Origin: a virus | Lineage: Duplodnaviria; Caudoviricetes | Strand: one strand, 5' to 3' | DNA length: 64,000 nt | Virus record (IMG/VR): IMGVR_UViG_3300044730_000647 | Coordinates: 1,079-65,078 of that record | Shown: one piece after another, positions 6,947-48,578 of the stretch | Position numbering within the stretch: the first letter of the stretch is position 1 | Layout of the letters: each line of letters opens with the position of its first letter | The notes under the pieces: generated by a model | Databases searched by the model: none | Told to the model about the DNA's origin: nothing | The model's input: only the letters and a program-made list of their open reading frames with translations | Translations under genes and position numbers: made by a program

Positions 6947-7281
6947 ATTTAGCCGCTTTAGAAGGACAAGTTTTTCTTCTGGGTCACTGGAAGAATTACG
7001 AAGAATTAGAAGAAAATTTATCAATGCCAGAATTGGTTCAAACCATAACAGCGATAAATGAGAAAGAGCATAACCAAAGAAAATTTGCAGCGTCACTAAA
7101 AGGAATACAATTAGATGATGGTGTAGAAGAAAAAGAAAAAGGTTCTACCTTTGAAGATATCCAAAGAAGAGCACTTGGAATAAATGCATCAGCAGATGAT
7201 GTTGTTGGTTTACAAGGGCCCTTCGCAGCAAAAGCTGGATTTGGAATTGGCGCAGGGTTAGGATACTCTAGGAGTAATTAG
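6910..7281 (+). CDS. Tail assembly chaperone frameshift extension (gpT part of gpGT)
   Basis: Open -1 frame (PNSGSGTGWSELDLAALEG...) with no good start of its own, ending at the TMP start. Confidence 0.8.
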   Translation, partial: PNSGSGTGWSELDLAALEGQVFLLGHWKNYEELEENLSMPELVQTITAINEKEHNQRKFAASLKGIQLDDGVEEKEKGSTFEDIQRRALGINASADDVVGLQGPFAAKAGFGIGAGLGYSRSN

Positions 7282-10200: not shown

Positions 10201-13200
10201 GGGAAGTAGTTTTTGGTCCTCAAATTCAAAGAATGCCTGAGCTTTATGCAGCAGTTGATGCAGCAAATAGCGGATACAATTTTGGTGGGCAGATTATGAA
10301 CGGTATTCCTGGCTATGGGAAGAAGACAGATAAGACACCATCTAGCAAGATGGACGAAAGACTATTTAAAAAACAATACAAAGAATATTTAAGATTTATA
10401 AATAATCCAAGATATGAAGATGATCTAAGAATTAGAATGATTATGCTGGATGCAGCAGAGCTGGCTGGAACTGCAGGAATGCCAGTAGATGAAGCTATTA
10501 AGAAAGCAACATCTAACTTTGATAAAGCAAAGATGATGTCTGGTGGATCTGATGAAGAGTTCGTTAAGATAAGAATTAAACAGGTACAAAATTTAGAAAA
10601 GAAGTATCCAAAGTTACGTGTTAAGAATGCTAAAACAGCTCAAGAAAGCAAGAGCAACGCTTTAAATTATAAGCTAAATGATGTTAGAGATGCTATGATG
10701 GATAAAAATCGTTTTCCAAATTTTGTTGGAGTAAAGGATTTAATAGAAGCGGTTTCACCAACAACATTTAAAAATAAAGATGGTATGCCAATTATTCAAG
10801 GATTGCATGAAAGAGCACATTTTAGAAGACGTAAAGATCTTGGATATATGACTAGTGGCTATATGGGATTAGCTGCAGTACTACCTCCTGGAATAAATAA
10901 CATAATGAGCAGACTTGAAGGAATTGGTCTCTCTAGAGATGTTCTAAATTTAAATGCAGCAGATGCAAGAGAAAACTTCGAGCTAGCCTTAAAGCGCACA
11001 GGAATGGATAAGTTTGCAACAGTAGATGATCTATATGCCGCAGTTCAAGATGATGGAAAGTTTAAAACCAAATCTGAATATGAATCAGGAAGAGTTGTTA
11101 GGGCAACTAAAGAGCAAAAAAATTCTTTACGGATGTTTTTAGAAGCAGCTGCAAAAAGACAAAGATGGCTACCAACAAGACCTCCTAGGCTTGTTATGGG
11201 TGGATACAATCTTGGCGGAATGATTCCAGGTGGATACATATCTAGGGGCAGATCAAATTATGGAAATATTGCTCCTGCATTAAGATTGCTTGCACCAGAT
11301 AAACAATTAAAGATTTTAGCAAAGGCAAGAGAATTAAGCTCAAGAAGCTCGCTAGGCAAGTTTGCCGATATGCCAGTAACTGAGTATGGGCATCAAATTT
11401 CTGCAAGCACAGGGATGAGTTATCCTGTACCTGGTGTATCTGGATTGTATAAGGTCGGTAACAAAAAAGTTTTTGTTAAAGGTGTTCCTAATGAATTAAC
11501 TGCCGTCCATGAGCCAATTGGCACTCAAATTGCAAGAGATCTTTTTGGAATACATTCTCCAGTACAAACAGCTAGGACAGTTGCAAATCCAGTAGATCCA
11601 ACAAAAAGAACCAAGCTACTTGCTTTAGAATCAGATTACGACCCACGCTTTGCAAACACTAATGTGCCATGGGATGAAGATACAGTGCTCAGACAGCTTG
11701 CTAATTCTCTTCTTTTAAACAACAAAGATTTATCTAGAGCAAACGTGTATGGTAATTTTAATCCAGATGTTGGGCAAGCTGGAGTATTACCTAAAGCATC
11801 TGGCAATACACGTCTTGCAACAGCTGATGAAATGAACTCTATGGAAAAGCAAGCAATGATTAATCTACTTGCCGTTAAAGGTGGAGCAAGAAAAGATTTC
11901 GCACGTGACACTGCACCAATAATTTCTAAGATGAGTCCGAAAAAATATGGTCGACGAATGAAGAAAATATTAGAAGATGCTCGTCCAAAATTATTAAAAA
12001 TAATAAATGATTTACCTGTAGATCTTAGACCTCCTTATCAAGCAATGCTTAAAAGATTGGATGATGGTATAGAGGTTGATTGGAGTCAATATCATGCCGT
12101 GCATGCTAATCCAAAATATCTTAATGCTGGAGGTCCAGTTGGTGGCGGCCCAATTAAGCCAGGAAGACGTGCCTATGGTCGAAAAGATGGTTCACGTAGA
12201 CCAGGAAACCCTGCTGCAAGAGCTAATTGGGAAGCGGAACAACGTGCACAAAGAGAAAGAGATTTAGCAGCAGAAAGATCTAGGGCTTCATCTCGTCAAA
12301 TTACTGGTCAACAGGCTTTAACAACAGGATTAGGAAGAGAAGCAGTTAGATCTGGAACAACAAGCTTCTACAACCCTGGACAAGTAATGGTTAACAATAT
12401 GATCGACCCATTTAGAAATTCAGCAGCAATGAAAACTCAATATTTATCAGCAGCTTTTAGATCTATGGGAAATTCAATTAAGGTAGACTCTATGCAGCTA
12501 GCAAAAGCTATAGATATAAATGCAAGAGTTATTACTCAGTCTATAAAGAATACTGCTACAACCATGAGCAGTTCTGTAAGATCAGCTGCCACATCAACAT
12601 TAAATTTTGCCAGAAGAGCACAAAACGCAATCATAAGAGAGCAAAATGCATTTGCAGCAGCTAGATATCCTGTTGGACAAGCACCAGCACAAGGATTCTT
12701 TGGCCCAGGTTTTGTTGGAAATTACAAGGATTTGGGCGATAATATTCAGTCTAGAAAAGTAGGAACTCTAGGAATGAGAAGAACAGAGTACCTTGTAGAC
12801 GGAAACGTAATGACCGCAAAGCAAGCTAAAGCTGAAGGAATAAATATCCCAAGAAGATACAATGGTATGAGTATGGGTTCTCAAATGGGAATTGGAATGG
12901 CTGGATCAATGGGCGGAATGGCATTGATGAGCAAAGAAAAGGTTAACATCCTAGGAAAAGAAATGTCAGGTATGAATGTTGGCATGGGTGTTATGGCTGC
13001 TACTTCAATACTTCCAATGCTTCCATGGGGTAAAGTTGGTACTGGCATAAAGTCTGCTGGAACTGCGCTAAAAGGATTTTCATTGTCAATGAGCGGGCTA
13101 GCAAAATTTGGAGCTATGCTTGCAAGATTTGCTAAGGGCTTTGGTTTAATAGGAGCAGCAATAACGGTTGCAACTGCAGCATTTAAAATTTATAAGGATT

Positions 13201-16200
13201 ATAAAGATGCTCAGCAAGATGCTTCTATAGGACTTTCTATGACAGCTAAAGCTGCGGAGCAGGCTGGAATAAAGTATTTTAATCTTAAAGAAACCATGCA
13301 AGGCTACATAGATAAACAAAAATTAGCAACCGCAGCAGCCAAGGGTGCAGAAGGAAACTCAATTGGTATGCCTGGACTACCTCAATCAATAGAGGAACTA
13401 AAGAAGGCAAAAGAAGAAGGAAAACAATTAAAAGATGTAATTGAATCCTTAAATAGATCAGAAACAACAGCAGAAACACAAAGATTAATTAATAATCAAA
13501 AAGCACAAATGGTTGCTGCTGGAATGAGCGTTGAAGAAGCAAATAAAAAAATATACGGTGCTTTAGCAAATAGCAATAAAGCCTCTCAAGCATACAAACT
13601 GCTTGCAAATACAGAATTTGGAGCAATAACAGATAAAGCTACAGCGGCAGAATTTTCTGTTGGAAATTTGGTAAACACCTTAAGCAAAGGAACAGGAACT
13701 GCTGATTGGTATAAAGAGGTAGGAAACGGTTTTGAAGGACTAATAGGTGTATTTTCTGAAGCAACAAAATCTTTAGTTGGAACAAAAGATGAGCTTGGAA
13801 ATGTTATAGATGAGTTTAAAGCTTATGAAATGGTTATGTCTAAAGCAGAAACAAATAACCCAGGCATGAATAAAGAAATAGGTAGAGACGTATACTTAAA
13901 TCTTCAAAAAACACAACCTTTGCTAGCGGGAATCATTAATGAATCAGACACTATAAAGGGAATACTTGCAAAGTGGAAACTTTTTACTGCTGGAATAAAT
14001 ATTGATCTAAGCAAAATAGATTCTACTCTAGCATCAAAACTTGCTGGATTTACTTCAGCAATCGGAACAGGAATCTCCCAGCTAACACAAGCTGCTGATT
14101 CTGCTACCACATACGCGACTGTTGGATCTGCTTTATCTAAACTTCAAAAAACAATTGCTGCAACTTCTGCAGCAGCTCAAAGAGCAAATGCAGCTTCTCA
14201 AAGAAGTGCACAGGAAGAATTAAAAGCAATTGCTAAAAAAATTAAGCTTATAGATGAAGAAAAAAATAAAAAGCTGGAGGCCTTAAGAGCAACTCAAGAT
14301 GCATCAAATTATGCATTGCAATTACAAAAGCTTCAGATAGAATATGCAGATGCTGTCTCTCGTGGAGACATGGCTGCAGCAAATCAAGCCAAGTTGGATA
14401 TAGATCAACTCACACTTAATAGACAAGCCGACCTTGCTCAAAAAGCAATAGAGGATGCAGCAAATAAAGCAAAGGCACCTTTAGAAAAAGATGCACAAGC
14501 AATACAAGACGCACAAGATAAAAAGAATACTGTTTTTCAAAATAATCAAGATAACTCTGCAGTAGCAGCTGATATAAAAGAATCTCTTGAAAAATTCCAG
14601 CTAACGTATAACGAGCTTAGTACAAGAGCTGTTAACGCACAGCTTCTTTCAGGTAAAGATAGAGTTGAAGAAGAAGCAGATATTAAGAAACAGCTTATTA
14701 GTTTCCTAAAAGAAATGCAAAAGGCTGGTACTGGACCAGGCCTGCTTGCACAAACAATAAGAAATGCATTCCCAGGATATTTTAATTCAGACGGAAAGCC
14801 AAAAGTTCCTGAAACAGTAACTACTGGATCTCCAACTGGATTTGATGCACAGGGAAGACCTATTCTTTCAACAAATACAACAGTAAACAATGATTCTCTT
14901 TCCCAGTTTAATAAAGATATTGCAGCTGTAAGCAAGCTAGCAGTTGCTATAACTGGAAATGTTACTTTGAGAAAATTACGTGACGACCTTGTGGAAGCAC
15001 TAGGTAAGTATAAGGGTGATATTAAATACGGATCAAAGGCTCAAGCATTAGAAGTTAAAGGTAGCAAGTATGATAAGTATTTGCAAGAAGACGGAAGCTT
15101 AAATTCTCAAGGTAGAAGAGCTTTAATGAAGGACAATAAATTAGGAGCAGATCAGTTCTTTACATATAAAGGAAAGACATATAGGGGGCAGGGAGCTGGC
15201 GCAGATGACTTATTGCCAGCAGTTTTGCAAAAAGCAGATGGCGGATATATAAAACACTTTAATCCAGGAGGAAAAGTTACTGGTCCAGGAACGGCAACAT
15301 CGGATTCTATTCCAGCAATGCTTTCAGATGGAGAGTATGTATTTAGTGCAAAGGCTGTAGACGCCGCTGGTGGTGCAGATGTTGTAGATGGTTGGCACAA
15401 AGCACTTAGAAGAGCAGATGGCGGTCCAATTCTTACATCACCAAGACAAAAGAAACCAGGTGTTCCATATTCAAGATCTGGAAGACCGATAGGAAATCCT
15501 TTTGGACAATACTGGGGAGAGCTTTCAAGATTTATTGGACCACGTAGTCCAGGCATGGATATTTGGGGCGGAACAGAAATACCAGGACTTAAGTTTACTG
15601 GAAAGGTTCCACAGCATTCAGACTACATGCATCAGATGCTTGAGCAGCCACGCAAGCCATTTACAAGCCCAGGAATGGGTCTAGACAAAGACCCTATGCG
15701 CCTTGCAGGCTCTGGAGCCTCTATGGGCGGTATCGGTAATGGAGCCTATGGACTAGGGCCACTCATGTTTGCAAACGGTGGTCCAGTATCTTCGTTTGGG
15801 TATCATGCAAAGCCAGACCCAAAACAATCATTCTTAAATAGAATTCTATTTGGAGTAAAGTATGTTGGGGGGCCACAGCCAACGCAATTAGGTGTTCCAT
15901 TTGGTCCTGGTGGAGTAGCAAAAATTGCTAAAATGTTAGCAAATATTAAAGAAGCAAAAGCGTTTACACATTTTGCTCATTCTCCTATAGATTCATTACA
16001 GCCATCAATAGGAAGAAAAAGCCCAGCAATGGCAAACTTTGGTCTTGGCACTTATGGATCCACTAAGGGGATATTTGAGGGCGCACAATTTGGAGAAGTG
16101 GCACATAAACTAAGCTTGTCACCATTTGCTTGGATTAAAACAGCTTTAGGTAAAGGACCGATTGACGATGCTGGATTGGCATTAGAGGCAGCGGCATTTA

Positions 16201-16736
16201 ATAAAGCAACAGGATCAAAAATTAGTGGAAGCTCAATGTATTTACACAATGAAGATTTTGTAAAATTCTTATCTAGCAGAGGATACACTGGTTATAAAAC
16301 TGGAGACATAGTTACAAATTGGAAAGTTGGTTCCCCAGGATTTGGTTTAAAAACCTCACTAGGAAAAGTTCCTTTCGGTGGTATTCCAAAGTCTACATCT
16401 TCTCAAACAATTGATCCACCTAGCGGACTAATCCTTGCCAACGGTGGTTTTGTTACTAAATCTCTTTCAAACCTTGGCGTACCGATGTTTGAAAATGGAA
16501 TTAATATGGTTCCTGCAAATATGCTTGCGATGCTTCATAAAGATGAAGCAGTTATCCCAGCTAACATGAATCCATTTAATCCAAATGCTACGGCGGCAGC
16601 AACAGGATCAGTATATAATATAAATGTAGAATTAAATGGAACAAACGTGACAGCAAAAGATGTTGCACTAGAAATACGTAATGAGATGAGATTAAAAGAA
16701 ATGGCAGCTGGAGTAAATAGAAAGGTTGGGTCATAA
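7281..16736 (+). CDS. Tape measure protein with inserted putative effector domains
   Basis: 3151 aa after the chaperones; N-terminal TMP core (LNAVENQTSTTLNDLVEAIPKAG, EGANALKS), hydrophobic segments and the GPGTATSDSIPAMLSDGEYV TMP motif; extra inserts described in findings. Confidence 0.93.
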   Translation: MADEQIVTSIVAKADLSSLVSEVHRASSSLQQLQRELLSSNRAISASTKLANNLFRDTLTGSGQFSSHFVNLNSDVDKFGKNLDSGRLKLKNYFQTFREHATTQKGMIRELAKEQVMLQNSVLQPLGRNAQGLMQYNVMIPRGLDAVKNSAQLARMELQIMNRALSEGAGSLINWGKNTQWAGRQLTVGLTVPLTMFGAAAGKAFREADQELVRLTKVYGGLAATSATDLKAIREEVVQTAKSLSQTMGASFKDTIALGADIAATGKMGNDLLGSIEETTRLAILGEVDRQDAMKATLSIQTAFKQNTQQLTESINFLNAVENQTSTTLNDLVEAIPKAGPVIQQLGGSIEDLALYMTAMREGGINASEGANALKSGLASLINPTKQTVGMMSDFGIDVLGMVAKNTGNTTGMLTDLQTALNKLDPLSKARALEQMFGKFQFARMSALLNNLGKEGSQTLQVMDLMKASTSDLAGIAERELGMITESASGKYRKAMESLKAELASVGEEFLGVATKLINAASKILNFFTELPTPIKKALTFMAGFTALVGPLIMLTGVLANFFGYITKGIVQLRSFFMRANGWKMLTPEIIAAQKAAEMVENAFYSDAAAAQVLHNALQKLVLDYQNLQAASMKSAVPVNAGVSTVAGNAIVAPAHGRRVVDPNDPYVGDLNTRAMSHIRPRDPNNPATLFGGVPGAIPVNRGISRTPQIYMHDRLPNVEGLTSVKGISTGIVAPEAAKFHALMATLGMQTEQEVANLKKTIAMGGTVSRELLDTFDDILPITQRFADSAATQSALIVQQMRNAEITVDQAKARILALNAQIEADMGSAVSMYAAGRGRTIDLTRAPMMDQPVVDANGQFTLRDLYKKKTNAAVMEEFGRVRGVRTFGAPYSIQTTRMPKFNIGGDIESFGPNKTVVSGPSSVDYDDRLGSVPLGGYVLNQQAAMDPANAPLVAMAPSTYLNDGGNITAALTPREVVFGPQIQRMPELYAAVDAANSGYNFGGQIMNGIPGYGKKTDKTPSSKMDERLFKKQYKEYLRFINNPRYEDDLRIRMIMLDAAELAGTAGMPVDEAIKKATSNFDKAKMMSGGSDEEFVKIRIKQVQNLEKKYPKLRVKNAKTAQESKSNALNYKLNDVRDAMMDKNRFPNFVGVKDLIEAVSPTTFKNKDGMPIIQGLHERAHFRRRKDLGYMTSGYMGLAAVLPPGINNIMSRLEGIGLSRDVLNLNAADARENFELALKRTGMDKFATVDDLYAAVQDDGKFKTKSEYESGRVVRATKEQKNSLRMFLEAAAKRQRWLPTRPPRLVMGGYNLGGMIPGGYISRGRSNYGNIAPALRLLAPDKQLKILAKARELSSRSSLGKFADMPVTEYGHQISASTGMSYPVPGVSGLYKVGNKKVFVKGVPNELTAVHEPIGTQIARDLFGIHSPVQTARTVANPVDPTKRTKLLALESDYDPRFANTNVPWDEDTVLRQLANSLLLNNKDLSRANVYGNFNPDVGQAGVLPKASGNTRLATADEMNSMEKQAMINLLAVKGGARKDFARDTAPIISKMSPKKYGRRMKKILEDARPKLLKIINDLPVDLRPPYQAMLKRLDDGIEVDWSQYHAVHANPKYLNAGGPVGGGPIKPGRRAYGRKDGSRRPGNPAARANWEAEQRAQRERDLAAERSRASSRQITGQQALTTGLGREAVRSGTTSFYNPGQVMVNNMIDPFRNSAAMKTQYLSAAFRSMGNSIKVDSMQLAKAIDINARVITQSIKNTATTMSSSVRSAATSTLNFARRAQNAIIREQNAFAAARYPVGQAPAQGFFGPGFVGNYKDLGDNIQSRKVGTLGMRRTEYLVDGNVMTAKQAKAEGINIPRRYNGMSMGSQMGIGMAGSMGGMALMSKEKVNILGKEMSGMNVGMGVMAATSILPMLPWGKVGTGIKSAGTALKGFSLSMSGLAKFGAMLARFAKGFGLIGAAITVATAAFKIYKDYKDAQQDASIGLSMTAKAAEQAGIKYFNLKETMQGYIDKQKLATAAAKGAEGNSIGMPGLPQSIEELKKAKEEGKQLKDVIESLNRSETTAETQRLINNQKAQMVAAGMSVEEANKKIYGALANSNKASQAYKLLANTEFGAITDKATAAEFSVGNLVNTLSKGTGTADWYKEVGNGFEGLIGVFSEATKSLVGTKDELGNVIDEFKAYEMVMSKAETNNPGMNKEIGRDVYLNLQKTQPLLAGIINESDTIKGILAKWKLFTAGINIDLSKIDSTLASKLAGFTSAIGTGISQLTQAADSATTYATVGSALSKLQKTIAATSAAAQRANAASQRSAQEELKAIAKKIKLIDEEKNKKLEALRATQDASNYALQLQKLQIEYADAVSRGDMAAANQAKLDIDQLTLNRQADLAQKAIEDAANKAKAPLEKDAQAIQDAQDKKNTVFQNNQDNSAVAADIKESLEKFQLTYNELSTRAVNAQLLSGKDRVEEEADIKKQLISFLKEMQKAGTGPGLLAQTIRNAFPGYFNSDGKPKVPETVTTGSPTGFDAQGRPILSTNTTVNNDSLSQFNKDIAAVSKLAVAITGNVTLRKLRDDLVEALGKYKGDIKYGSKAQALEVKGSKYDKYLQEDGSLNSQGRRALMKDNKLGADQFFTYKGKTYRGQGAGADDLLPAVLQKADGGYIKHFNPGGKVTGPGTATSDSIPAMLSDGEYVFSAKAVDAAGGADVVDGWHKALRRADGGPILTSPRQKKPGVPYSRSGRPIGNPFGQYWGELSRFIGPRSPGMDIWGGTEIPGLKFTGKVPQHSDYMHQMLEQPRKPFTSPGMGLDKDPMRLAGSGASMGGIGNGAYGLGPLMFANGGPVSSFGYHAKPDPKQSFLNRILFGVKYVGGPQPTQLGVPFGPGGVAKIAKMLANIKEAKAFTHFAHSPIDSLQPSIGRKSPAMANFGLGTYGSTKGIFEGAQFGEVAHKLSLSPFAWIKTALGKGPIDDAGLALEAAAFNKATGSKISGSSMYLHNEDFVKFLSSRGYTGYKTGDIVTNWKVGSPGFGLKTSLGKVPFGGIPKSTSSQTIDPPSGLILANGGFVTKSLSNLGVPMFENGINMVPANMLAMLHKDEAVIPANMNPFNPNATAAATGSVYNINVELNGTNVTAKDVALEIRNEMRLKEMAAGVNRKVGS

Positions 16737-25586: not shown

Positions 25587-28500
25587 ATGACAATCTGGAG
25601 AAGAATTAACGACTCAGGCGGTGAGGTTTCTGTAGCCACTAATGGCTGGGTAAAAATAAAAAATATTTTTAGAAGAATAAATGACTTCGGTGGAGAAGTC
25701 AACGTGGCTGATCGTGGCTGGGTAAAACTTAAAAGCATATGGAGATACGAAGGAAGCGGCATCTGGAGAAGAATATTTGGAGCAGCGTTCCCATATCCAA
25801 AATCAGACGTGGGTCTTGTATTTATATCTCCATCATCGATAGAGTCAGAGTATCAGTGCACTCAGCAAGACAAGATGTATGTCAGAAGAGGAAAGTGGTA
25901 CGAAGACCCTAAATCCTTTTTAATAAAAATTCAAAAGGCTGCCCTTGGCGGGTGGGCAGATCAAACAGATTTAATAACTCAAGAATTAGAGTATCTAGAA
26001 TATAAAGACTCTGACTACCTAGATCAGGTTCCAACGAATACTGCATTGCGCCCAGTAATTAATTTAGAAGACATTAAAAATAAAGTTGGGTTTAGAGCAA
26101 AGATTCAAGCTGCAGAAGATAAAAATCCAGAAGAGTCGGATTACTTAGAGGCAACTACATGGTATCCAAGTGCAAACGGAATATTCCCAAAACTAACATT
26201 TGGATTTCACACATACAGCACTGGAGATCAAATAATTGAAGATGAAACACTTAGCATGCCTGAATTTAAAATATTTGGATTTAAATGGCAGTACCTAACA
26301 TCATCTGCATCATCATATCCAAATGGACAATATTTTTCTTCATCTCGGACTGATGAGTTTATTGGAAAGCAAATAGTTGAGTTTACTGATTTTTATGGTA
26401 CAAGGATAGGAGATCTGAAAAGCGAAGACGTACTTCCAAATCACCAGTACTCTAGTTTTGTACAGTATACACAAGCAATGATTGATTCTGGTGAAGACTA
26501 TATAATTAATGTTTATGCAGTTGCAAAAGATTACTATTATAATCCCAGCCTTTCTTTGGAGCAGCACCTGCTAGATTTTAATGAAACCCAACAAGTTGCT
26601 TCATATGTATTTACCCCTCCTAGGGAAATAGAAAACCCAGAAATAACAATATCAAATAGAACAAAAAGCTCCGCAGACATTTCTTGGTATTCACCAGATG
26701 CAGAAAGATACAAGGTTGATCTAATTGATTCTATTACAGGTAACTCTTTGCCTGGCTATCCATTAGCCTCAACAACAAGTACTTCTGCCAGCCCTTTTGG
26801 ATTAACGGAAAACAGACTGTATACCGTTTTGGTAACGGCACTTGCTGGAGAAGGAGATAAGTACAAAAGCGACGAGGTTTCTAAAAGCTTTAGAACAATT
26901 TCTACTGGCGTAGAGGCAATTCTTGGAGAGCCTTATGATATTACAGAAAATAGTTATAAGGTATATATAGCAAACTATAGCAGCTTATCTGGATTTACTA
27001 TAACAGCAAATGTAAGCTTAGGGTCAGCATCCATATCTGCAGATGTAATTTCAGTATCTGGAATAACAAGCAGTGGAGATTCCTGCCTAACTGTTACAAC
27101 TGAAAAAATAGATAATGTCAATTTAACTGCAGTCTCTTATGAGCAAGCTACATCCGACACTCTATGTACAGAAATAGGTTCCATATGGTACTGCTTAACA
27201 TATGGAAATACTCAGCCAGTAGTTTGTTCTGGGCCAACAATTGAGTTATCGGATAAATCTGGAGGCGCTAGCGGATACTCTATAACCTGCTCTAAAACAG
27301 AAATATGTTGTCAAAAGGTCGTGCTGGAGCCAAAGGTTTATACAGAATGGGTTATTGGATTGTGTACAGTTTTCCCTGCAGATCCTAAGAGACCAAGAAC
27401 TAGACAATGGACACAGCAACAAAAAACTACTTCTCAAAATTGCGTAGTTACTACTGTTGAGCTTTCTGGCTCAGAAACAGAATACATAGATTGTTGTATT
27501 GCCACCTCAACTTTAGGCGAAAAGACTTATGGAACTCCTGGTCCTTGGGGTACGTGTACTCCTAACGTAGGAATAACTAGACTAGTACCATGGACTGCTA
27601 CTAGAACTAATTACAGCAGAGACTGCATTACCACTACAACTCAAGAGTCTGGGAATGAGCAGCAGTTTAAAGATTGTTGTGTTGCCAGCACAGTTGACGG
27701 GGATAAGACATACAGTGCCTGGTCTGAATACGGCGAGTGTTATGGAGCTGATCCTAGAAGAACTCGATCAAGAACCTGGACTGCACTAAGAATAACAACA
27801 AATACTAGCTGTGTTGAAACAACAACAGAAATAAGTGGTACAGAGCAACAGGACACAAGCTGCTGTACACCTTCTACAACTTATGGACCAAAAACTTACG
27901 GAACACCTGGCCCATGGGGTACATGTAATTTAAATACTGGACAAATAGGAAGACTAATTCCCTGGACAGCAACAGCTACTACTATAAACTCAAGCTGTGT
28001 TACTACGGTTGGTCCAGGATCTGGAAATGATGTCGATTATAAAGATTGCTGTACTTCCAGCGTCACCACTGGCCCAAAGACATACAGTGACTGGTCTGCA
28101 TACGGAAGCTGTATCCAAGGAGAAAGAACACGCTATAGAACCTGGACGGCAATTGAAACAAGCAATACAATTAACTGCACATCATCAACAAAAGAAGTAA
28201 ACGGAACTGAGTTTGGGTATGCGCCATGCTGCACAGCTGGGTGTACTCTGGGTACTAAAACCTACGGTGATTGGTCTGCATACGGAAGTTGCAGTAATGG
28301 CGAGAGAAGAAGACAGAGATCTTGGACTGCAATAAATACGTGTATCGATTCAAGCTGTAATATAATTTCTCAAAATGAATTAAATAGTGTTGAGTATGAG
28401 TACACATCATGTTGCACTCAGGTATGTACAACTGGTGAAAAGACTTATGGGGCCTGGGGTGCGTATGGAAGCTGTAATCTATTTACCTCACAGATTTGCA

Positions 28501-29663
28501 GAACAAGACCTTGGACAGCTCAACAATCTTGTTTTACAACAAGCTGCACAAATGAAGTAACTACTATTTCTGGAAATGATATTGAGTGTATAGATTGTTG
28601 TACTGCTAGCGTTACCACTGGTCCAAAGACATATAGTGCCTGGTCTGCATACGGAAACTGTAGCCAAGGAGAAAGAACACGCTCTAGAACCTGGACGGCA
28701 ATTGAAACAAGCAATACAGTTAATTGCACTTCATCAACAAAAGAGGTTAGCGGAACTGAGTTTGAGTATGCGCCATGCTGCACGGCAGGATGTACAACTG
28801 GTGATAGAAGTTATAGCGCATGGGGGTCATGGGGGTCATGTAGCCAAGGAGAACAGGCTAGAATTAGAACTTGGACTGCTATAGAAACATGTATTAATTC
28901 AAGCTGCAATGTTTTGTCTACCAGAGAAGTTAGTAGTTTTGAAATAGAATACAGAAACTGTACCACTATTAATACAATTAATACTATTAACACAATTAAT
29001 ACTATTAACACAATTAATACTATTAACACAATTAATACTATTAACACAATTAATACTATTAACACAATTGATACAATTGATACAATTAATACTATTAACA
29101 CAATTGATACAATTAATACTATTAACACAATTGATACAATTGATACAATTGATACCATTGACACAATTGATACAGGCGGTGGTGGATGTCACGTTGTAGG
29201 AACTAAAATACAGATGGCAGATGGCACATTTAAAAATATTGAAGACCTTTATATTGGAGATGAAGTAATGGCAGCAGACGTTCCAGGTGTTGGCGACAAC
29301 GAAGCTGACATAAGCAATCTATCTCTCTGGTCATCCGAAGATATTTCTGGAACAACTAAGACTGTAGCAAATGTAACAAATGTTATTATAAGATCTTATG
29401 GACAGTACTACTTAATAAATGATACAATTAAGATAACGTACGAGCATATTATTCCAGCAAGACAAAACGGTGTTTGGAAATTTATTGAGGTTAAAGACTT
29501 AAATGTGGGTGATACAGTTATGAATGAGAATTTAGATAACGTTACGGTTACCTCAAAAATTTTAGTTGATGAAATAGTCGAAACAGTTTCAATTAATATT
29601 GAAAATAAAGACATATACTTTGTTGAGGGCTTAATGGCTCACAACTTCAGCGAAAAGACATAA
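25587..29663 (+). CDS. Tail-associated Cys-rich repeat protein with I[N/D]T repeats and C-terminal Hint domain
   Basis: N-terminal W-rich repeats, an FN3-like domain, nine ~61-aa CC...W..C...R.R.W...C repeats, 23 I-[N/D]-T units, then GGGG-CHVVGTKIQMADG...TYEH...AHN. Confidence 0.8.
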   Translation: MTIWRRINDSGGEVSVATNGWVKIKNIFRRINDFGGEVNVADRGWVKLKSIWRYEGSGIWRRIFGAAFPYPKSDVGLVFISPSSIESEYQCTQQDKMYVRRGKWYEDPKSFLIKIQKAALGGWADQTDLITQELEYLEYKDSDYLDQVPTNTALRPVINLEDIKNKVGFRAKIQAAEDKNPEESDYLEATTWYPSANGIFPKLTFGFHTYSTGDQIIEDETLSMPEFKIFGFKWQYLTSSASSYPNGQYFSSSRTDEFIGKQIVEFTDFYGTRIGDLKSEDVLPNHQYSSFVQYTQAMIDSGEDYIINVYAVAKDYYYNPSLSLEQHLLDFNETQQVASYVFTPPREIENPEITISNRTKSSADISWYSPDAERYKVDLIDSITGNSLPGYPLASTTSTSASPFGLTENRLYTVLVTALAGEGDKYKSDEVSKSFRTISTGVEAILGEPYDITENSYKVYIANYSSLSGFTITANVSLGSASISADVISVSGITSSGDSCLTVTTEKIDNVNLTAVSYEQATSDTLCTEIGSIWYCLTYGNTQPVVCSGPTIELSDKSGGASGYSITCSKTEICCQKVVLEPKVYTEWVIGLCTVFPADPKRPRTRQWTQQQKTTSQNCVVTTVELSGSETEYIDCCIATSTLGEKTYGTPGPWGTCTPNVGITRLVPWTATRTNYSRDCITTTTQESGNEQQFKDCCVASTVDGDKTYSAWSEYGECYGADPRRTRSRTWTALRITTNTSCVETTTEISGTEQQDTSCCTPSTTYGPKTYGTPGPWGTCNLNTGQIGRLIPWTATATTINSSCVTTVGPGSGNDVDYKDCCTSSVTTGPKTYSDWSAYGSCIQGERTRYRTWTAIETSNTINCTSSTKEVNGTEFGYAPCCTAGCTLGTKTYGDWSAYGSCSNGERRRQRSWTAINTCIDSSCNIISQNELNSVEYEYTSCCTQVCTTGEKTYGAWGAYGSCNLFTSQICRTRPWTAQQSCFTTSCTNEVTTISGNDIECIDCCTASVTTGPKTYSAWSAYGNCSQGERTRSRTWTAIETSNTVNCTSSTKEVSGTEFEYAPCCTAGCTTGDRSYSAWGSWGSCSQGEQARIRTWTAIETCINSSCNVLSTREVSSFEIEYRNCTTINTINTINTINTINTINTINTINTINTINTINTIDTIDTINTINTIDTINTINTIDTIDTIDTIDTIDTGGGGCHVVGTKIQMADGTFKNIEDLYIGDEVMAADVPGVGDNEADISNLSLWSSEDISGTTKTVANVTNVIIRSYGQYYLINDTIKITYEHIIPARQNGVWKFIEVKDLNVGDTVMNENLDNVTVTSKILVDEIVETVSINIENKDIYFVEGLMAHNFSEKT
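27306..28961 (+). repeat. Nine tandem ~61-aa Cys-rich thrombospondin-type-1-like repeats
   Basis: Consensus CC-x6-G-x-KTY-x2-W-x2-[YW]G-x-C...R-x-R-x-WTA...C...SG-x-E; units 5-6 and 8-9 are very similar in DNA (offset 549 nt). Confidence 0.9.
28968..29174 (+). repeat. 23 x 9-bp tandem repeat encoding I-N-T / I-D-T
   Basis: ATT-[AG]A[TC]-AC[ATC] x23 (15 INT, 8 IDT), with a higher-order 18-bp unit ATTAATACTATTAACACA. Confidence 0.95.
29187..29645 (+). other. Hint (Hedgehog/intein-like) autoprocessing domain within CDS 25587..29663
   Basis: Block A C1 (CHVVGTKIQMADG..KNIEDL..GD.V), block B TxxH (ITYEH), C-terminal HN followed by FSEKT-stop; no endonuclease. Confidence 0.88.
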
Positions 29664-29677
29664 GATGGGGGAACAAG

Positions 29678-30259
29678 TTGAAGGTAGAAGACCTGGGAAA
29701 TAAAATATTTATGTATAAGAATGCAATAGAAAATGATTTGCAAATTCTTACTGAGCTAAATAGTATATTTTCTGATTATAATCAAGACTATAAGTCCGCA
29801 ACAATAAATAATCATGACTATGACCCCTCCTTGCGTTCGTGCACTGTTTTTTCATTATACACAAACTTGCAAGACAAATCCGATTACAATAATGCAAAAA
29901 GAGTTCTTAATAAAAAAATAGATCTAGCATTATCTAAGTGTATATTGCATTTTGTAAGATCAACTGGAATAAAGATAAAAGAAAGGGAGCCGTGGGAGAT
30001 ATTAAAGTATGAGCAGTCTCAAAAGCTCACATGGCACAGTGACGATGGAAAAAGCCACCCGTCTACTATATCGTTTGTTTACTATATAAATGATGATTAT
30101 GAGGGAGGGGAAATTCAGTTTAAAGATAAAGCATACAGCATACCGATAAAGCCTCAAAAGAATAGCCTGATAATATTCCCTTCCAGCTCAGATTATATAC
30201 ACAGGGTTTTGCCAGTAGTAAGCGGAGTGAAGCACTCGGTAATATCCTTTGGCAAATAA
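29678..30259 (+). CDS. 2OG-Fe(II) oxygenase (prolyl-4-hydroxylase-like)
   Basis: ILKY...WHSD (HxD), YINDDYEGGEIQF, IIFPS, YIHRVLPV..G.K motifs. Confidence 0.9.
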   Translation: MKVEDLGNKIFMYKNAIENDLQILTELNSIFSDYNQDYKSATINNHDYDPSLRSCTVFSLYTNLQDKSDYNNAKRVLNKKIDLALSKCILHFVRSTGIKIKEREPWEILKYEQSQKLTWHSDDGKSHPSTISFVYYINDDYEGGEIQFKDKAYSIPIKPQKNSLIIFPSSSDYIHRVLPVVSGVKHSVISFGK

Positions 30260-30318
30260 ATTTTTTACTAGACATCTATTGCAATAAATGATATGATTCA
30301 TTGTGTTAAGGAGATATT

Positions 30319-30552
30319 ATGAATAAGTCAGACATGCAAGGAAGTACATACATGGTTCTTGTTGATGGTGAGTATGCTGGGTGGTTTAATATCGCTGGCC
30401 CTGGAACTGATCTATTAAGAGCTGGTCTTTCTAGCACACCAATTTTAGTAGATATGGAAGACATTGCAATTGATATTCCAGATTTACCAAAAGCTGGCGC
30501 TAATTATTTTTGGAACGGCCAGTCGTTTGAATTGAGGGAAATAAGTGGCTAG
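30319..30552 (+). CDS. Hypothetical protein
   Basis: SD AGGAG; ends YFWNGQSF, as seen in small fibre-associated phage proteins. Confidence 0.6.
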   Translation: MNKSDMQGSTYMVLVDGEYAGWFNIAGPGTDLLRAGLSSTPILVDMEDIAIDIPDLPKAGANYFWNGQSFELREISG

Positions 30553-30781
30553 TAAATGGGAGCAAGCAAAAAAGCTTGTTTCTTCAAATGAAGTAAAACC
30601 CTGGGATTTTTTAAATCCAAACACAGAGTATTCTTCAGAAGAAGAGTCAAGTGCCAGGTATTCTTTATGTAAAGCCTGCCCTAAATTTAATGACGGGGTA
30701 AAGACCTGCCAAGAATGCGGTTGCTTTATGCCAGCGAAAACAAGATTAAAGGGAGCGGTTTGCCCAATAGGTAAATGGTAA
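30545..30781 (+). CDS. Small Cys-rich metal-binding protein
   Basis: R..LCKACP...CQECGCFMPAK..L....CP.GKW. Confidence 0.7.
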   Translation: MASKWEQAKKLVSSNEVKPWDFLNPNTEYSSEEESSARYSLCKACPKFNDGVKTCQECGCFMPAKTRLKGAVCPIGKW

Positions 30782-30816
30782 TGGTATAATAATATGACAA
30801 ACAAGGAGGAAGTAAA

Positions 30817-31038
30817 ATGGCAGAATACGTATTAACCAATGAAGAAAAAAGCTCAATAATTGAGTCTCACCTGAGAACGCTTGCATACTCAAAGTATAAT
30901 TTACAGGTAAATTTAATGGAAGAGGAAGCAGCAGAAACTCCATCTACAGATGGTATTGCATCTATTAATGTGCAAATTGCTTCAGTTAATAAAAAAATAG
31001 AGGCTCTTGTCGAAGAGCTAACTTCTCTATCAGAATAA
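30817..31038 (+). CDS. Small coiled-coil hypothetical protein
   Basis: SD GGAGG; TGGTATAAT promoter at 30782-30790. Confidence 0.7.
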   Translation: MAEYVLTNEEKSSIIESHLRTLAYSKYNLQVNLMEEEAAETPSTDGIASINVQIASVNKKIEALVEELTSLSE

Positions 31039-36985: not shown

Positions 36986-39900
36986 TTGAACTTCACACAT
37001 TTGCATGTGCATTCTTTCTATTCATTAATGGATGGGCTTAATTCTCCTGCCGAACTTGTAAAAGCTGCAAAAGAAGCTGGTCAGACTTCTCTGGCTATTA
37101 CTGACCACGGAACACTATCTTCACACCGTGAAATGCAAATTGCATGTAAAGAGCAAGGGATCAAGCCAATTCTTGGAGTGGAAGCATACATTTCTCCAAC
37201 AGATAGATTTGATAGATCTTCAAAGACAGATAAATCAATTCAGGCCTATAACCATATTATTCTTTTAGCTAAGAATAAAAAGGGTCTAGAGAATATCAAC
37301 ACCCTTCAGGAGCTTGCATGGACAGAAGGCTTTTATCATAAGCCACGTATTGATAGAGAGGTATTGAAAGAGTATGCAGAAGGTATTATTGTATTGTCTG
37401 GATGCCTTAACGGGCTTATTAGTAAGGCTATTGAACGCCAGGAATTCTCAGAAGCAAAACTTGTACTTCAAGACTTTAAGAAAACTTTTGGTGAAGACTT
37501 TTACGTTGAGGTGCAGTCTCATAACCCGACAGAAATCAACTCAAAGCTTTTGGAGCTGGCTGATCAACTCAAGATAAAAGCGGTGGCAACAGGAGATGCT
37601 CACTTTGCTAAAGAAGAAGATAGAGTATTAGAAGAAGCAATGCTTATTCTATCAACATCTCCTAAGTCGGATAAAGATGCAGACTTTGAAATGTCTAGAC
37701 AAATGCCAGACATGATGGATAGATTTAATTACTTATACCCAGACCGTAGAATATCATTTCAAGATTATAATCTATTTATTCAAAGCAGGTCTGAAATTGA
37801 GGCGGACTTTAATAAGGCAGGAATTACTCGTACAGATATATATGATAATACAATGGAAATTGCTAATAAGATTGGCGAGTATGACTTCTATGAGGGTCTA
37901 GATCTGCTGCCTATCCCAAAGACCAATGCTGATAAGAAACTGGCTGATATGGCCTTAGAAGGCCTTAAAAGACTATCTCTGGACAAAGATCAGGTCTACT
38001 TGGATAGAATTGCAGAAGAGTTATCTATAATTAAAGATAAGGCGTTTGCTTCATATTTCCTAGTTGTAGCAGATATGATTACATGGGCTAAGTCAAATAA
38101 TATTATGGTTGGTCCAGGTCGTGGTTCTGCAGCTGGCTCTTTGGTCTGCTACGCTCTGGGCATTACAGATGTAGATCCAATTAAATATGATTTACTTTTC
38201 TTTAGATTTATTAATCCAGAACGTAATGACTTTCCAGATATAGATACAGACTTTGAGGATCGCCGCCGTAAAGAAGTAAAAGATTATTTAAAGAAGAAGT
38301 TTAAGCACGTTGCATCTATTTCTACATTCACTTATTTTAAAGATAAGGGTGTAATTCGAGATGCTGCAAGAGTGTTTATGGTTCCTCTTTCAGATGTTAA
38401 TCGTGCAATGAAGTCTATCGATACATTTGAGGACTTTATGGATTCTCCAAATACAAAAGAGTTTAGAGCAAAATATCCAGAAGTAACTTGGCTTGCGGAA
38501 AGACTTCGTGGAAAGATTCGAAGTGTTGGAGTCCATGCTGCAGGTGTAGTTGTTGCAAAAGATGATTTGAGAAAGTATGCTCCAATAGAGTCCAGAGCTG
38601 ATGCAAATGATGATGTTTCTGGAAGAATTCCAGTCGTGGCATACGATATGGATACGGTTGCAGATATAGGTCTTATTAAGCTAGATGCCCTAGGTCTTAA
38701 GACTTTATCTGTGATCTCAGATACATTGAAATCAGTTAAGGATAGACACGGTAAAGAAATCAATCTATACTCCATACCGCTTGATGACCAAAAAGTTTAC
38801 AAGATGTTTAACGATGGTTATACAAAAGGTGTGTTCCAAGCAGAAGCAACACCGTACACAAACCTGCTAATTAAAATGCAGGTAGATAAGTTCGAAGACC
38901 TTGCAGCGTCTAACGCTTTGGTTAGACCAGGTGCAATGAATACTGTAGGTGCTTCATACATTAAGCGTAAACATGGAAATGAAGCGGTTAATTATATCCA
39001 TCCAATTATGAAGCCATTTACAGAAAATACATACGGAGTTATTATTTATCAGGAGCAGGTTATGCAAGCATGCGTACACCTTGGCGGAATGACTTGGTCG
39101 GAAGCAGACAAGGTTAGAAAGGTTATTGGTAAGAAGCAAGATGCAAAGGAACTCGGTCCATTCAAAGATAAATTTATTCAGGGTGCTAAAAAGCATATCA
39201 GCGCCGATGAAGCAGAAAGTCTCTGGAAAACATTCGAAGCTCACGCTGGATACTCATTCAATCGTAGTCACGCTGTCGCTTATTCTATGCTTTCTTATTA
39301 TACCGCTTGGCTTAAGTGCTATTATCCTTTGGAATTTTTATTCTCGATCCTTAAAAATGAAGGAGACAAAGACGCAAGAACAGGTTATTTGATCGAAGCC
39401 AAGAGGCTTGGAATTAAAGTTAAGCTTCCACATGTAAATGAATCAGATGTAAATTTCTCATTACAAAAGGATTCAATTAGATTTGGTTTAGCTGAAGTTA
39501 AATTTATTTCAGACAGCATTGCAAATAAAATTATTGAAAAGAGACCATATGAAAACTATAAAGATTTTGTTGACAAAGCATCCAAAAAGGGTAGCGGCAT
39601 TAATTCTAGGGCCATTAATTCTCTCAATGCTATTGGGGGTGCTGCTTTTGATGATAATCCTAGAAGCGGTAAAGAAGGAGAGTCTTATTACGAATTTTTA
39701 GGAATACCTTCGTTTAATCTTTCTAACTTAGAGCCAAGGGTCAAAGCACAGGCTAGACCTATTGATGAGTTTGAAGAGCTAGGATCGTTTGTTATGTTTG
39801 GTATGGCTAAAAGCATAAAGCGTGGGAATGGTTGGTCACGAATAGAACTTGTTGATGAAAGTGGATCAGTTGGATTGTTCGATATTGAGCAGACAAAAAT

Positions 39901-40255
39901 AGAAACAAACAAAATGTATTTTGTTTTAGTCGGAGACAATAGAATATCTAGGTATATAGATGTAGACTCTATCACTAAAGATTCAGACGATGCATTTGTA
40001 AAGTACTTGTATGCAAAGTCATACCCTATTGACGAAAACCAAAGGTTTGTGATAAGCTATACTCCATATAAAACAAAAGCTGGCAAGACCATGGCACACC
40101 TTGTAATGTCAGATAAAGATAAAAATTTAAATAGAGCAATTGTATTTTCAAGTATGTATCCGATTTCGTTGGCAAAAATGCGAGAGGGAATGATATGCGA
40201 GCCAGTTCTAAAAACTTTAGAAGATGGAACACTTATGGTTAAGGAAGTAAAATGA
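36986..40255 (+). CDS. dnaE: DNA polymerase III alpha subunit (DnaE)
   Basis: PHP motifs HLHVHSFYSLMDG and AITDHG; GPGRGSAAGSLV; PDIDTD; HAAGVV; KLDALGL; GYSFNRSHA. Confidence 0.97.
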   Translation: MNFTHLHVHSFYSLMDGLNSPAELVKAAKEAGQTSLAITDHGTLSSHREMQIACKEQGIKPILGVEAYISPTDRFDRSSKTDKSIQAYNHIILLAKNKKGLENINTLQELAWTEGFYHKPRIDREVLKEYAEGIIVLSGCLNGLISKAIERQEFSEAKLVLQDFKKTFGEDFYVEVQSHNPTEINSKLLELADQLKIKAVATGDAHFAKEEDRVLEEAMLILSTSPKSDKDADFEMSRQMPDMMDRFNYLYPDRRISFQDYNLFIQSRSEIEADFNKAGITRTDIYDNTMEIANKIGEYDFYEGLDLLPIPKTNADKKLADMALEGLKRLSLDKDQVYLDRIAEELSIIKDKAFASYFLVVADMITWAKSNNIMVGPGRGSAAGSLVCYALGITDVDPIKYDLLFFRFINPERNDFPDIDTDFEDRRRKEVKDYLKKKFKHVASISTFTYFKDKGVIRDAARVFMVPLSDVNRAMKSIDTFEDFMDSPNTKEFRAKYPEVTWLAERLRGKIRSVGVHAAGVVVAKDDLRKYAPIESRADANDDVSGRIPVVAYDMDTVADIGLIKLDALGLKTLSVISDTLKSVKDRHGKEINLYSIPLDDQKVYKMFNDGYTKGVFQAEATPYTNLLIKMQVDKFEDLAASNALVRPGAMNTVGASYIKRKHGNEAVNYIHPIMKPFTENTYGVIIYQEQVMQACVHLGGMTWSEADKVRKVIGKKQDAKELGPFKDKFIQGAKKHISADEAESLWKTFEAHAGYSFNRSHAVAYSMLSYYTAWLKCYYPLEFLFSILKNEGDKDARTGYLIEAKRLGIKVKLPHVNESDVNFSLQKDSIRFGLAEVKFISDSIANKIIEKRPYENYKDFVDKASKKGSGINSRAINSLNAIGGAAFDDNPRSGKEGESYYEFLGIPSFNLSNLEPRVKAQARPIDEFEELGSFVMFGMAKSIKRGNGWSRIELVDESGSVGLFDIEQTKIETNKMYFVLVGDNRISRYIDVDSITKDSDDAFVKYLYAKSYPIDENQRFVISYTPYKTKAGKTMAHLVMSDKDKNLNRAIVFSSMYPISLAKMREGMICEPVLKTLEDGTLMVKEVK

Positions 40256-48060: not shown

Positions 48061-48134
48061 GCAACAATAGCTTAGTTGGTTAAAGCCCCGAACTCATAAT
48101 TCGGTAATCGTAGGTTCAAGTCCTACTTGTTGCA
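48061..48134 (+). tRNA. tRNA with CAU anticodon (elongator Met or Ile2)
   Basis: Acceptor GCAACAA/TTGTTGC, D-arm GCTT/AAGC, anticodon arm CCGAA-CTCATAA-TTCGG, T-arm GTAGG-TTCAAGT-CCTAC; no initiator GGG/CCC; CCA not encoded. Confidence 0.9.
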
Positions 48135-48147
48135 CAGAAAGGTAGCA

Positions 48148-48503: not shown

Positions 48504-48578
48504 ACCTCTGTAGCTCAGAGGAAGAGCAACAGACTTCTAATCTGTTGGTCGCTGGTTCGATTCCAGCCAGGGGTACCA
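48504..48578 (+). tRNA. tRNA-Arg(UCU)
   Basis: Acceptor ACCTCTG/CAGGGGT, anticodon arm ACAGA-CTTCTAA-TCTGT, T-arm GCTGG-TTCGATT-CCAGC, encoded ACCA; TATAAT at 48490-95. Confidence 0.93.

Follow-up and report, generated by a model that had tools for sequence, protein, structure and literature searches.

The 64-kb stretch of DNA analysed here (64,000 nucleotides, called the window below) belongs to a 65-kb viral contig, IMG/VR record IMGVR_UViG_3300044730_000647, with a completeness estimate of ~54%. All of its genes lie on the + strand and its GC content is 33–42%. The last large gene of its tail module, open reading frame (ORF) 25587–29663, encodes a tail-fibre-like structural protein of 1358 amino acids, P0001, whose C-terminal part consists of a tandem repeat, a poly-Gly linker, a Hint domain and a five-residue tail that contains a lysine; a gene for a 2-oxoglutarate (2OG)-Fe(II) oxygenase follows directly. 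The comparisons described below suggest that such a self-processing repeat fibre, together with the hydroxylase that travels with it, may constitute an undescribed virion-fibre maturation pathway.

Residues 1128–1196 of P0001 (28968–29174) are 23 consecutive Ile-[Asn/Asp]-Thr triplets, detected by Tandem Repeats Finder with a score of 259–267 and evident in the translation. Six different 9-nt units with synonymous variation build this array, close relatives have arrays of 12 to 24 triplets, and the same repeat-Hint layout recurs in relatives whose Hint domains are only 35–82% identical. The score, the synonymous variation among units and the recurrence in such divergent relatives argue that the array is not a chance feature, and the synonymous differences among the six units indicate that it is kept at the protein level while expanding by slippage. 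ORFs on the minus strand over the repeat (e.g., 28811–29164 and 28899–29192) were considered and rejected as genes; they are by-products of the repeat. The array is followed by a GGGG linker (residues 1197–1200, 29175–29186) whose last residue, Gly1200, occupies position -1 of the putative scissile Gly-Cys bond, then by the 153-residue Hint domain, C1201–N1353 (29187–29645), and finally by the tail FSEKT and its stop codon (29646–29663, stop at 29661–29663), in which K1357 is encoded at 29655–29657. The gene for the 193-amino acid oxygenase (29678–30259) starts 14 nt after that stop codon.

An initial annotation of this DNA, made without database searches, had listed the 23 triplets, the GGGG, the Cys1, TxxH and His-Asn motifs of the Hint domain, the Phe at +1, the five-residue tail and the 14-nt gap, and had placed behind them an oxygenase gene and two small ORFs, one with a Cys-rich product. 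Each of these is indeed present; the oxygenase belongs to PF13640 and the Cys-rich product has six Cys. The start given for the array, 28959, has to be moved, as the first triplet begins 9 nt further downstream at 28968.

Three proteins with an N-terminal part orthologous to that of P0001 (P0159, P0160 and P0161) have (FFPPHFPP)n as their repeat instead. This precedes, in two of the three, a divergent Hint domain that ends ...HNK, and the third ends in GGGGGG plus seven residues without a Hint domain, its C-terminus being possibly incomplete. Word-based protein searches gave three matches to longer proteins for the Hint domain alone and five for the N-terminal part of the fibre, and these are examples only.

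The BIL-type Hint domain and its tail lysine

The complete set of Hint catalytic residues is found in the domain: Cys1 (C1201, 29187–29189), the block-B T-x-x-H (T1284-Y-E-H1287), the block-F Asp and the terminal His-Asn (H1352-N1353, Asn codon at 29643–29645). It thus has both the N-terminal Cys and the block-B motif that mark the Hint superfamily, and the T and H of block B are invariant or nearly so in both alignments that we used, one of 40 sequences (A1) and one of ten family Hint sequences (A2). The AlphaFold2 model built with A1, with a predicted local distance difference test score (pLDDT) of 89.0 and a predicted template modelling (TM) score of 0.82, has the horseshoe-shaped all-beta fold of the superfamily; it replaced an uninformative model made without an alignment (pLDDT 31). 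The best PDB match of the model by Foldseek is the Tetrahymena BIL2 domain (6y75 and 6tmm, E 4e-9 to 3e-8, TM score 0.70–0.80), the third-best is the Clostridium thermocellum BIL domain 2lwy (E 8e-9), and weaker matches are to mini-inteins (~1e-6 and weaker) and Hedgehog (1at0, E 2.3e-5). Fifty-six PDB chains matched at E ≤ 0.001, and all of the ~40 among the matches listed are BIL, intein, Hedgehog or Vint domains. A profile of A2 run against 177,635 PDB sequences found only 2lwy (1.3e-6) and the two BIL2 entries, 6y75 and 6tmm (1.6e-6), at E ≤ 0.01. Judged by predicted fold and by profile, in both of which it is nearest to BIL domains, the window domain is a BIL-type Hint domain. The features that define A-type BIL domains (in part after PMC7765530) are likewise all present, namely a His-Asn end, no obligatory Cys, Ser or Thr at +1, no endonuclease and variable, non-housekeeping host proteins. 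That paper describes BIL domains as residing in variable, non-conserved proteins and as cleaving at their own N- or C-termini.

The initial annotation had compared the domain with Hint domains of the Hedgehog and BIL types that lack Cys, Ser or Thr at +1. The point about +1 is borne out by the Phe at that position and the BIL placement by fold and profile, but a Hedgehog Hog domain is ruled out, as the protein ends five residues after the Hint domain and has no adduct-recognition region. A pretoxin HINT domain was also rejected, since no toxin domain follows and no immunity-like gene was recognised downstream.

A phmmer search with the 159-residue domain against 1.84 billion representatives (clusters at 50% identity) returned 1430 at E ≤ 1e-3, 336 of them at E ≤ 1e-10. 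The counts that follow for the position of the domain, Cys1, His-Asn and the -1 and +1 residues were made on the best 150 of these 1430 representatives, which contain 157 domains. Of 142 family proteins, 121 end with the domain and a tail of at most 25 amino acids (median 7), and the remaining proteins have tandem or internal Hint copies. Cys1 is present in 150/157 domains and the His-Asn in 143/154; Gly occupies -1 in 76 of the 157, as part of GG in 53 and of GGGG in 33. The residue at +1 is mostly A, I, F, K, V or L, with Ser in nine, Thr in four and Cys in none of 153 cases. The N-terminal parts of ten members match Phage_tail_fib (90 bits), fn3, collagen, Ig-like, MBG and PASTA domains. 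The domain is nearly always the last part of a fibre- or adhesin-like protein, and poly-Gly often precedes Cys1.

Among isolated phages, full-length matches to the Hint domain are found only in jumbo phages of Erwinia, Dickeya and Yersinia, where the domain forms the end of a protein with collagen repeats whose annotation is virion structural, tail or tail-fibre protein. The remaining tblastn matches in isolated phages are partial and fall on true inteins, which reside in genes for RecA/UvsX, terminase and helicase. PMC6143709 uses the term "hairy Myoviridae" for Dickeya phage AD1 and Erwinia phage Y3. Both carry the collagen-repeat Hint protein (in AD1, locus L001, it is coding sequence AD1_108), and nothing ties the hairs to that protein. 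Small Hint proteins of 300–510 amino acids occur in two synteny groups and consist of a PASTA-like N-terminus followed by repeats, poly-Gly and the Hint domain; such PASTA-like starts are seen at L017, L019, L020, L031, L035 and L047, and P0008 matches PF03793 at 29 bits. PASTA domains bind peptidoglycan fragments in Gram-positive bacteria.

A nearly invariant feature outside the domain itself is a lysine in the tail. Among the 112 short family tails behind an exact His-Asn, 109 have a Lys, where 25.5 are expected from each protein's own composition; random windows of the same lengths (2000 draws) contain it in a mean of 23.9 and at most 38 of 112. In the viral loci described below, all 65 tails have it (48/48 distinct sequences), while control C-termini of other genes from the same loci contain it in a mean of 24.2 and a maximum of 37 of 48. 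Tails differ in where their first Lys stands, from +1 to +15 with +2 and +5 the most frequent positions, and two orthologues of the window fibre end in ...HNK and so have a tail of a single Lys. Such variation is more in keeping with a tethered nucleophile than with a catalytic residue at a fixed place. Participation of the tail in the reaction would most simply account for a nucleophile at variable distance, a conserved Asn-cyclisation dipeptide and a tail too short to form a domain.

The Tetrahymena BIL2 domain offers a parallel. Section 2.4 of PMC8616854 reports an isopeptide between a Lys epsilon-amine and the C-terminus, and BIL2 is described there as conjugating the ubiquitin-like domain upstream of it to a Lys of the downstream domain and of other proteins. 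The likening of the ...GG end to ubiquitin-like conjugation in the initial annotation thus has a precedent, a Lys isopeptide made with a ubiquitin-like domain. Because BIL2 is reported to form a Lys isopeptide and because the tail Lys is so conserved, we propose by analogy that this residue, Lys1357 in P0001, is the most likely acyl acceptor and would resolve the Gly-Cys thioester.

We note that the tails of the proteins with NPP(V)Y repeats (L017, L020, L021, L025, L028 and L029) have a C-x-x-C before the Lys, e.g., I-I-C-Y-E-C-A-G-K-L, and that no Cys occurs in the tails of the other viral loci.

Oxygenases, repeat types and the genomic setting

The product of the gene adjoining the Hint gene matches PF13640 (2OG-FeII_Oxy_3) at 57.4 bits against a cut-off of 27, as well as phrog_61, and resembles prolyl 4-hydroxylases (P4H). 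It has the H120-x-D122...H175 of the family and the basic residue K185, and the 65-kb contig has no other PF13640 match. In the PDB no solved homologue of it was found nearer than PKHD-type hydroxylases (E 1e-3).

A degenerate-pattern scan with the ten-sequence Hint alignment yielded 79 viral loci, and PF13640 was searched for in 49 records of related loci. It was matched in 30 of these, with up to 11 copies per genome of ~115 kb. In 23/49 records the Hint gene is immediately followed on the same strand by a PF13640 gene; one further record has a weak match (19 bits), and in another the nearest copy is 1.5 kb off. By clustering of ORFs, three synteny groups carry the Hint-oxygenase pair and several other Hint-bearing groups are without an oxygenase.

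When the loci were sorted by the sequence upstream of the poly-Gly, giving 65 entries (64 loci and the window, near-duplicates included), the oxygenase was found to go with the repeat. One or two oxygenase genes stand directly downstream in the 20 entries with [IV][NDA]T triplets, two in the seven with NPP(V)Y repeats, one in the four with TQN triplets and one in the single entry with an SGGSTN repeat. Four entries have a hydrophobic FxFTP repeat, and of these L026, L030 and L032 lack an oxygenase and L023 has a degenerate copy. The one poly-Pro entry (L043) has none directly downstream and three within seven genes, and the 28 entries with Pro/Thr-rich sequence and poly-Gly, or with no repeat, have none directly downstream either. 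An oxygenase is therefore directly downstream in 32/32 entries with polar or Pro/Tyr repeats, and an intact copy in that position is found in 0/33 of the others. The four FxFTP loci share their flanking genes with oxygenase-bearing loci of the same synteny group. The oxygenase of L023 sits on a long branch and no longer has the first of the iron-binding His residues or the Lys that binds 2-oxoglutarate, and the H-x-D...H...K/R signature is kept in 38 of 39 distinct oxygenases. Since Hint proteins without such repeats have no adjoining oxygenase, it is the repeat type, and not the Hint domain, that the oxygenase follows.

The oxygenases themselves divide in the same way. The deepest split of their tree (100 by the Shimodaira-Hasegawa-like approximate likelihood ratio test, SH-aLRT) separates neighbours of Pro/Tyr repeats from neighbours of INT or TQN repeats, and the 2-oxoglutarate-binding residue is Arg in those next to Pro/Tyr-rich repeats and mostly Lys in those next to INT or TQN repeats. 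Locus L011 combines upstream genes of synteny group B with an IDT repeat and an INT-type oxygenase, as if, from the sequence, the repeat-Hint gene and the oxygenase had moved together. The stop codon of the Hint gene and the start codon of the oxygenase overlap (-1 or -4) in 18 of 33 loci, and in 31 of the 33 the gap is at most 17 nt. A survey of Hint-oxygenase linkage had been set in advance by the initial annotation as a test of its own proposal, and the linkage proves to be conserved over three synteny groups and to track the repeat type.

Three of 50 records have, one to three genes beyond the Hint gene, a gene for a PF11397 "Glycosyltransferase (GlcNAc)" protein (N-acetylglucosamine, GlcNAc; 136 bits), at L022:3906–4949 with homologues in L034 and L026. 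We take PF11397 to include the enzyme that glycosylates the hydroxyproline of Skp1. Two other repeat proteins have oxygenase genes near them in the complete relative G001. There, five tandem oxygenase genes lie two genes after an fn3 protein that ends in (FFSPPFFPPG)n-GFGGGG plus six residues and has no Hint domain (L085:2879–3775), and one oxygenase gene lies two genes after an 84-amino acid (AKKAP)9 protein (L086:1705–1959).

Two small genes follow the oxygenase in the window. The first (30319–30552) encodes a protein of 77 amino acids without a family in Pfam or PHROG and is kept in close relatives only (cluster c28). The second (30545–30781) encodes the 78-amino acid six-Cys protein, which matches DUF6171 (PF19668, 28.8 bits against 27) and phrog_13558. 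Synteny groups A and B and part of group C have DUF6171 proteins (cluster c8) close to the oxygenase, though not every locus does; the match in the relative L022 (21.7 bits) is below the cut-off of 27.

Upstream of the P0001 gene, the genes from 53 to 25574 encode, among others, a head maturation protease, the capsid protein, a 3151-amino acid protein, a minor tail protein of 1100 amino acids and an fn3 protein of 1243 amino acids, so that ORF 25587–29663 closes the tail module. P0001 is considered tail-fibre-like from this position, from its translation and from an fn3 domain at residues 352–432 (26.5 bits against a cut-off of 25). It also contains about nine Cys-rich repeats of ~55 amino acids each at 27504–28964, which were read from the translation (residues ~640–1126) and whose borders are approximate, with the motif W/Y-x-x-W/Y-G-x-C...G-E-R-x-R-x-R-x-W-T. 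These look like thrombospondin type 1 (TSP1) repeats, which would be unusual in a phage if so; their language-model feature similarity to TSP1 clusters, 0.82–0.85, is a lead only, and Pfam TSP_1 was not matched by P0001 at E ≤ 0.1. The ORF for the 3151-amino acid protein (7281–16736) has the size of a tape-measure gene and occupies its position, and if it does encode the tape-measure protein the tail would be exceptionally long.

Downstream of the P0001 gene a few small genes lead to a replication module that contains a DnaB-like helicase, a primase-sized ORF and a DnaE-type DNA polymerase. The latter (36986–40255) has a full-length identity of 55–58% to the polymerases of ~127-kb Streptomyces phages, and this similarity and the PASTA domains of relatives hint at a low-GC actinobacterial host. 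Complete relatives of the window phage are ~115 kb long (G001, 96%; G004, 98%; G050, 100%, with terminal repeats). No isolated phage matched the DNA of 27000–31000 by megablast. The window also has two tRNA genes, Met(CAT) at 48061–48135 and Arg(TCT) at 48504–48578, and a 507-amino acid ORF (50351–51874) that matches phrog_2928, a PHROG annotated as tryptophan halogenase (E 6e-103).

Proposed fibre maturation and its relation to known systems

We lean towards the view that P0001 is a tail-fibre-like virion protein with a C-terminal maturation cassette of repeat, poly-Gly, BIL-type Hint domain and Lys tail, which would work as follows. The oxygenase would hydroxylate residues of the repeat in the cell, Pro in the NPPVY-type relatives and Asn, Asp or Thr here; as the window repeat has no proline, its target would have to be Asn, Asp, Thr or Ile. 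The Hint domain would carry out an N-to-S acyl shift at Gly1200-Cys1201, and the epsilon-amine of Lys1357 in the flexible tail would attack the thioester to give a Gly-Lys isopeptide, as is reported for Tetrahymena BIL2. Cyclisation of Asn1353 would then release the Hint domain and leave a fibre end of ...IDT-GGGG capped by the pentapeptide. With water as the nucleophile instead of Lys, the outcome would be plain self-cleavage after the GGGG.

Several observations weigh against this proposal. We infer cleavage, isopeptide formation and hydroxylation alike from sequence. The window Hint domain does not reach the gathering threshold of any of the Pfam Hint-clan families PF01079, PF05203, PF07591 and PF13403 (it scores 22.6 against 32.1 bits for PF05203, 19.0 against 27.7 for PF07591 and 16.3 against 29.7 for PF01079), and the family as a whole is captured by none of the existing Pfam models. 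The tail is modelled at low confidence (mean pLDDT 58 for the last block), and Lys occurs in roughly half of the C-terminal stretches of ordinary proteins from these loci. To our knowledge no hydroxylation chemistry has been established for an I-N/D-T motif, and neither the window contig nor any of the complete relatives G001, G004 and G050 yielded a glycosyltransferase. The evidence for linkage of repeat and oxygenase has its own limits, which are taken up with the alternative on which they bear.

A strong rival to capture by Lys is hydrolysis: water would resolve the thioester and the Hint domain be discarded, making the cassette a plain self-cleaving C-terminal module and a functional analogue of the S74 chaperones, with the tail Lys serving elsewhere, in fold stability, Asn cyclisation or solubility. 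We regard this as possible rather than probable. The complete catalytic set, the frequency of Gly at -1 and the cleavage at either terminus described for BIL domains all agree with it, and self-cleaving C-terminal chaperone domains are an established theme in fibres (PMC7824862); it leaves unexplained, however, the conservation of both the His-Asn and the tail Lys when only 4–11 residues follow, and a Lys that may stand anywhere between +1 and +15 is ill suited to a fixed structural or catalytic role. A peptidase S74 chaperone proper is ruled out for the window protein, which has no Pfam or PHROG match to one and whose C-terminal domain has the predicted Hint fold. Transfer in trans, in which a Lys of another virion protein would attack the thioester and anchor the fibre covalently, or an amine of the host cell wall would do so in the manner of sortase or thioester-adhesin chemistry, strikes us as improbable. 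In its favour, the N-terminal flank of BIL2 is reportedly joined to more than one kind of substrate (PMC8616854), and the PASTA domain at the N-terminus of the small family members means that the binding end may be the N-terminus; yet external amines would lose out to the conserved Lys tethered in cis, the analysis turned up no candidate acceptor, and such a transfer has no need of the conserved His-Asn. Least probable of all is an intein, whether canonical or decayed, that persists as a selfish element without a function in the fibre. The Hint fold and the matches of the N-terminal block A to Hom_end_hint and to the phage inteins of RecA/UvsX, terminase and helicase genes recall one, but the domain is not an intein proper because it lacks a +1 nucleophile (the residue is Phe), a real C-extein (five residues at most) and an endonuclease, and a terminal position kept behind unrelated N-terminal parts and clearly conserved catalytic residues also argue against decay or selfishness.

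As for the hydroxylation step, the oxygenase might be a mere syntenic neighbour that acts on a host protein, a nucleic acid or a metabolite and stays next to the fibre gene by descent, which we think somewhat unlikely. Genomes of ~115 kb with up to 11 PF13640 genes mean that some adjacency could arise by chance, all of the oxygenase-linked loci come from related phages with other genes in common, and the more distant Hint families, like the one Dickeya jumbo-phage locus examined (no oxygenase within 6 kb of its Hint gene), are without the enzyme. The Hint tree offers only three phylogenetically independent contrasts, and although all three are as predicted the sign test gives p = 0.25, so that we claim no statistical proof of co-evolution. 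What a mere neighbour would not explain is the loss or degeneration of the gene exactly where the repeat is hydrophobic and the flanks are otherwise identical, the agreement of oxygenase clades with repeat types, including the cassette swap at L011, the overlapping stop and start codons, and the placing of other oxygenases of G001 two genes from the (FFSPPFFPPG)n and (AKKAP)9 proteins. A broader extension of the favoured scheme, which we offer tentatively and hold to be doubtful, is that aquatic phages run a dedicated fibre pathway in which paralogous prolyl-hydroxylase-like oxygenases would hydroxylate the repeats (which in some lineages would then be given GlcNAc, as in collagen and the glycoproteins of plant cell walls), the Hint domain would form its thioester, the tethered tail Lys would capture this as an isopeptide, and cyclisation of the Asn would eject the Hint domain.

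The interpretation in the initial annotation is thus supported in part. The cross-linking of fibres or attachment of a small molecule that it envisaged found no specific support, and it included neither the near-invariant tail Lys nor the dependence of the oxygenase on the repeat. A BIL-type Hint domain and a prolyl-hydroxylase-like oxygenase are each already known. The terminal Hint family on phage fibres, its tail Lys and its pairing with repeat arrays and dedicated oxygenases were not found described; the searchable literature, which holds few subscription journals, had no C-terminal Hint domain on phage fibres, no tail Lys and no Hint-oxygenase pairing, and this is weak evidence that they are unpublished.

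Many 2OG-Fe(II) oxygenase genes in phages of aquatic bacteria have no explained role. The repeat-dependent coupling seen here makes one such role, the modification of virion fibre repeats, directly testable, and if the broader scheme is true these repeats would be the first concrete substrate class for the unexplained oxygenases of marine and freshwater phages. It would also mean a natural, ATP-independent and Lys-directed protein splicing in viruses of bacteria. Fibres that are otherwise orthologous differ in the number and type of their repeats, so the cassette may influence host recognition or the properties of the virion surface. With its terminal position, frequent poly-Gly and tail Lys, the Hint family is natural material for studying how Hint domains ligate without a +1 nucleophile, and possibly for compact self-cleaving or self-capping tags.

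Among known systems the best structural match is BIL2 of the Tetrahymena thermophila BUBL1 polyubiquitin-like locus, which shares the Cys1 and the C-terminal His-Asn (the crystallised variant is C1A-N143A) and which, according to PMC8616854, joins its N-terminal flank to a Lys side chain by an isopeptide, as is proposed for P0001. Unlike the window domain, to which it is ~21% identical, BIL2 comes from a eukaryote and is flanked by a ubiquitin-like domain on either side; the Lys that accepts the flank is in a folded C-terminal domain and not in a five-residue tail, and neither an oxygenase nor a repeat array is involved. The A-type BIL domain of Clostridium thermocellum (2lwy) has the same His-Asn end but is internal, with a real C-terminal flank. 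No description of a conserved tail Lys in BIL domains was found in the searchable literature. Work by Dassa in 2004 and by Aranko in 2013 reportedly dealt with BIL ligation without a nucleophilic side chain.

The Hedgehog Hog domain (1at0) is also a C-terminal Hint domain, and it forms a Gly-Cys thioester from which the N-terminal part is transferred to a nucleophile. Hog has a sterol-recognition region and uses cholesterol, whereas the window protein has only five residues after its Hint domain, and the conservation of the His-Asn in the family suggests that, unlike in Hog, the C-terminal junction would react too. Pretoxin HINT domains (PF07591) resemble the cassette as releasing peptidases on long, repeat-containing secreted proteins; PF07591 matches the C-terminal half of the window domain weakly, as scored above, and one family member at 41 bits. 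The pretoxin domain precedes the toxin that it releases, according to PMC3482391, and here only a pentapeptide follows. In phages the closest functional analogy is with the S74 chaperones, which according to PMC7824862 are C-terminal, self-removing and borne on low-complexity or repetitive fibre shafts, but their fold and chemistry (a Ser-Lys dyad) are unrelated to those of Hint domains.

Oxygenases of the P4H type act on repeat proteins in several settings, including collagen P4H, the Chlorella virus P4H with its Pro-rich repeats and the P4H1-Gnt1 pathway of Skp1. Although the window repeat, unlike those substrates, has no proline, the window enzyme and its relatives resemble these systems in their PF13640 domain, their H-x-D...H...K/R residues and the position of their genes beside those of repeat proteins, which in the relatives include NPP(V)Y, poly-Pro, (FFSPPFFPPG)n and (AKKAP)9 repeats.

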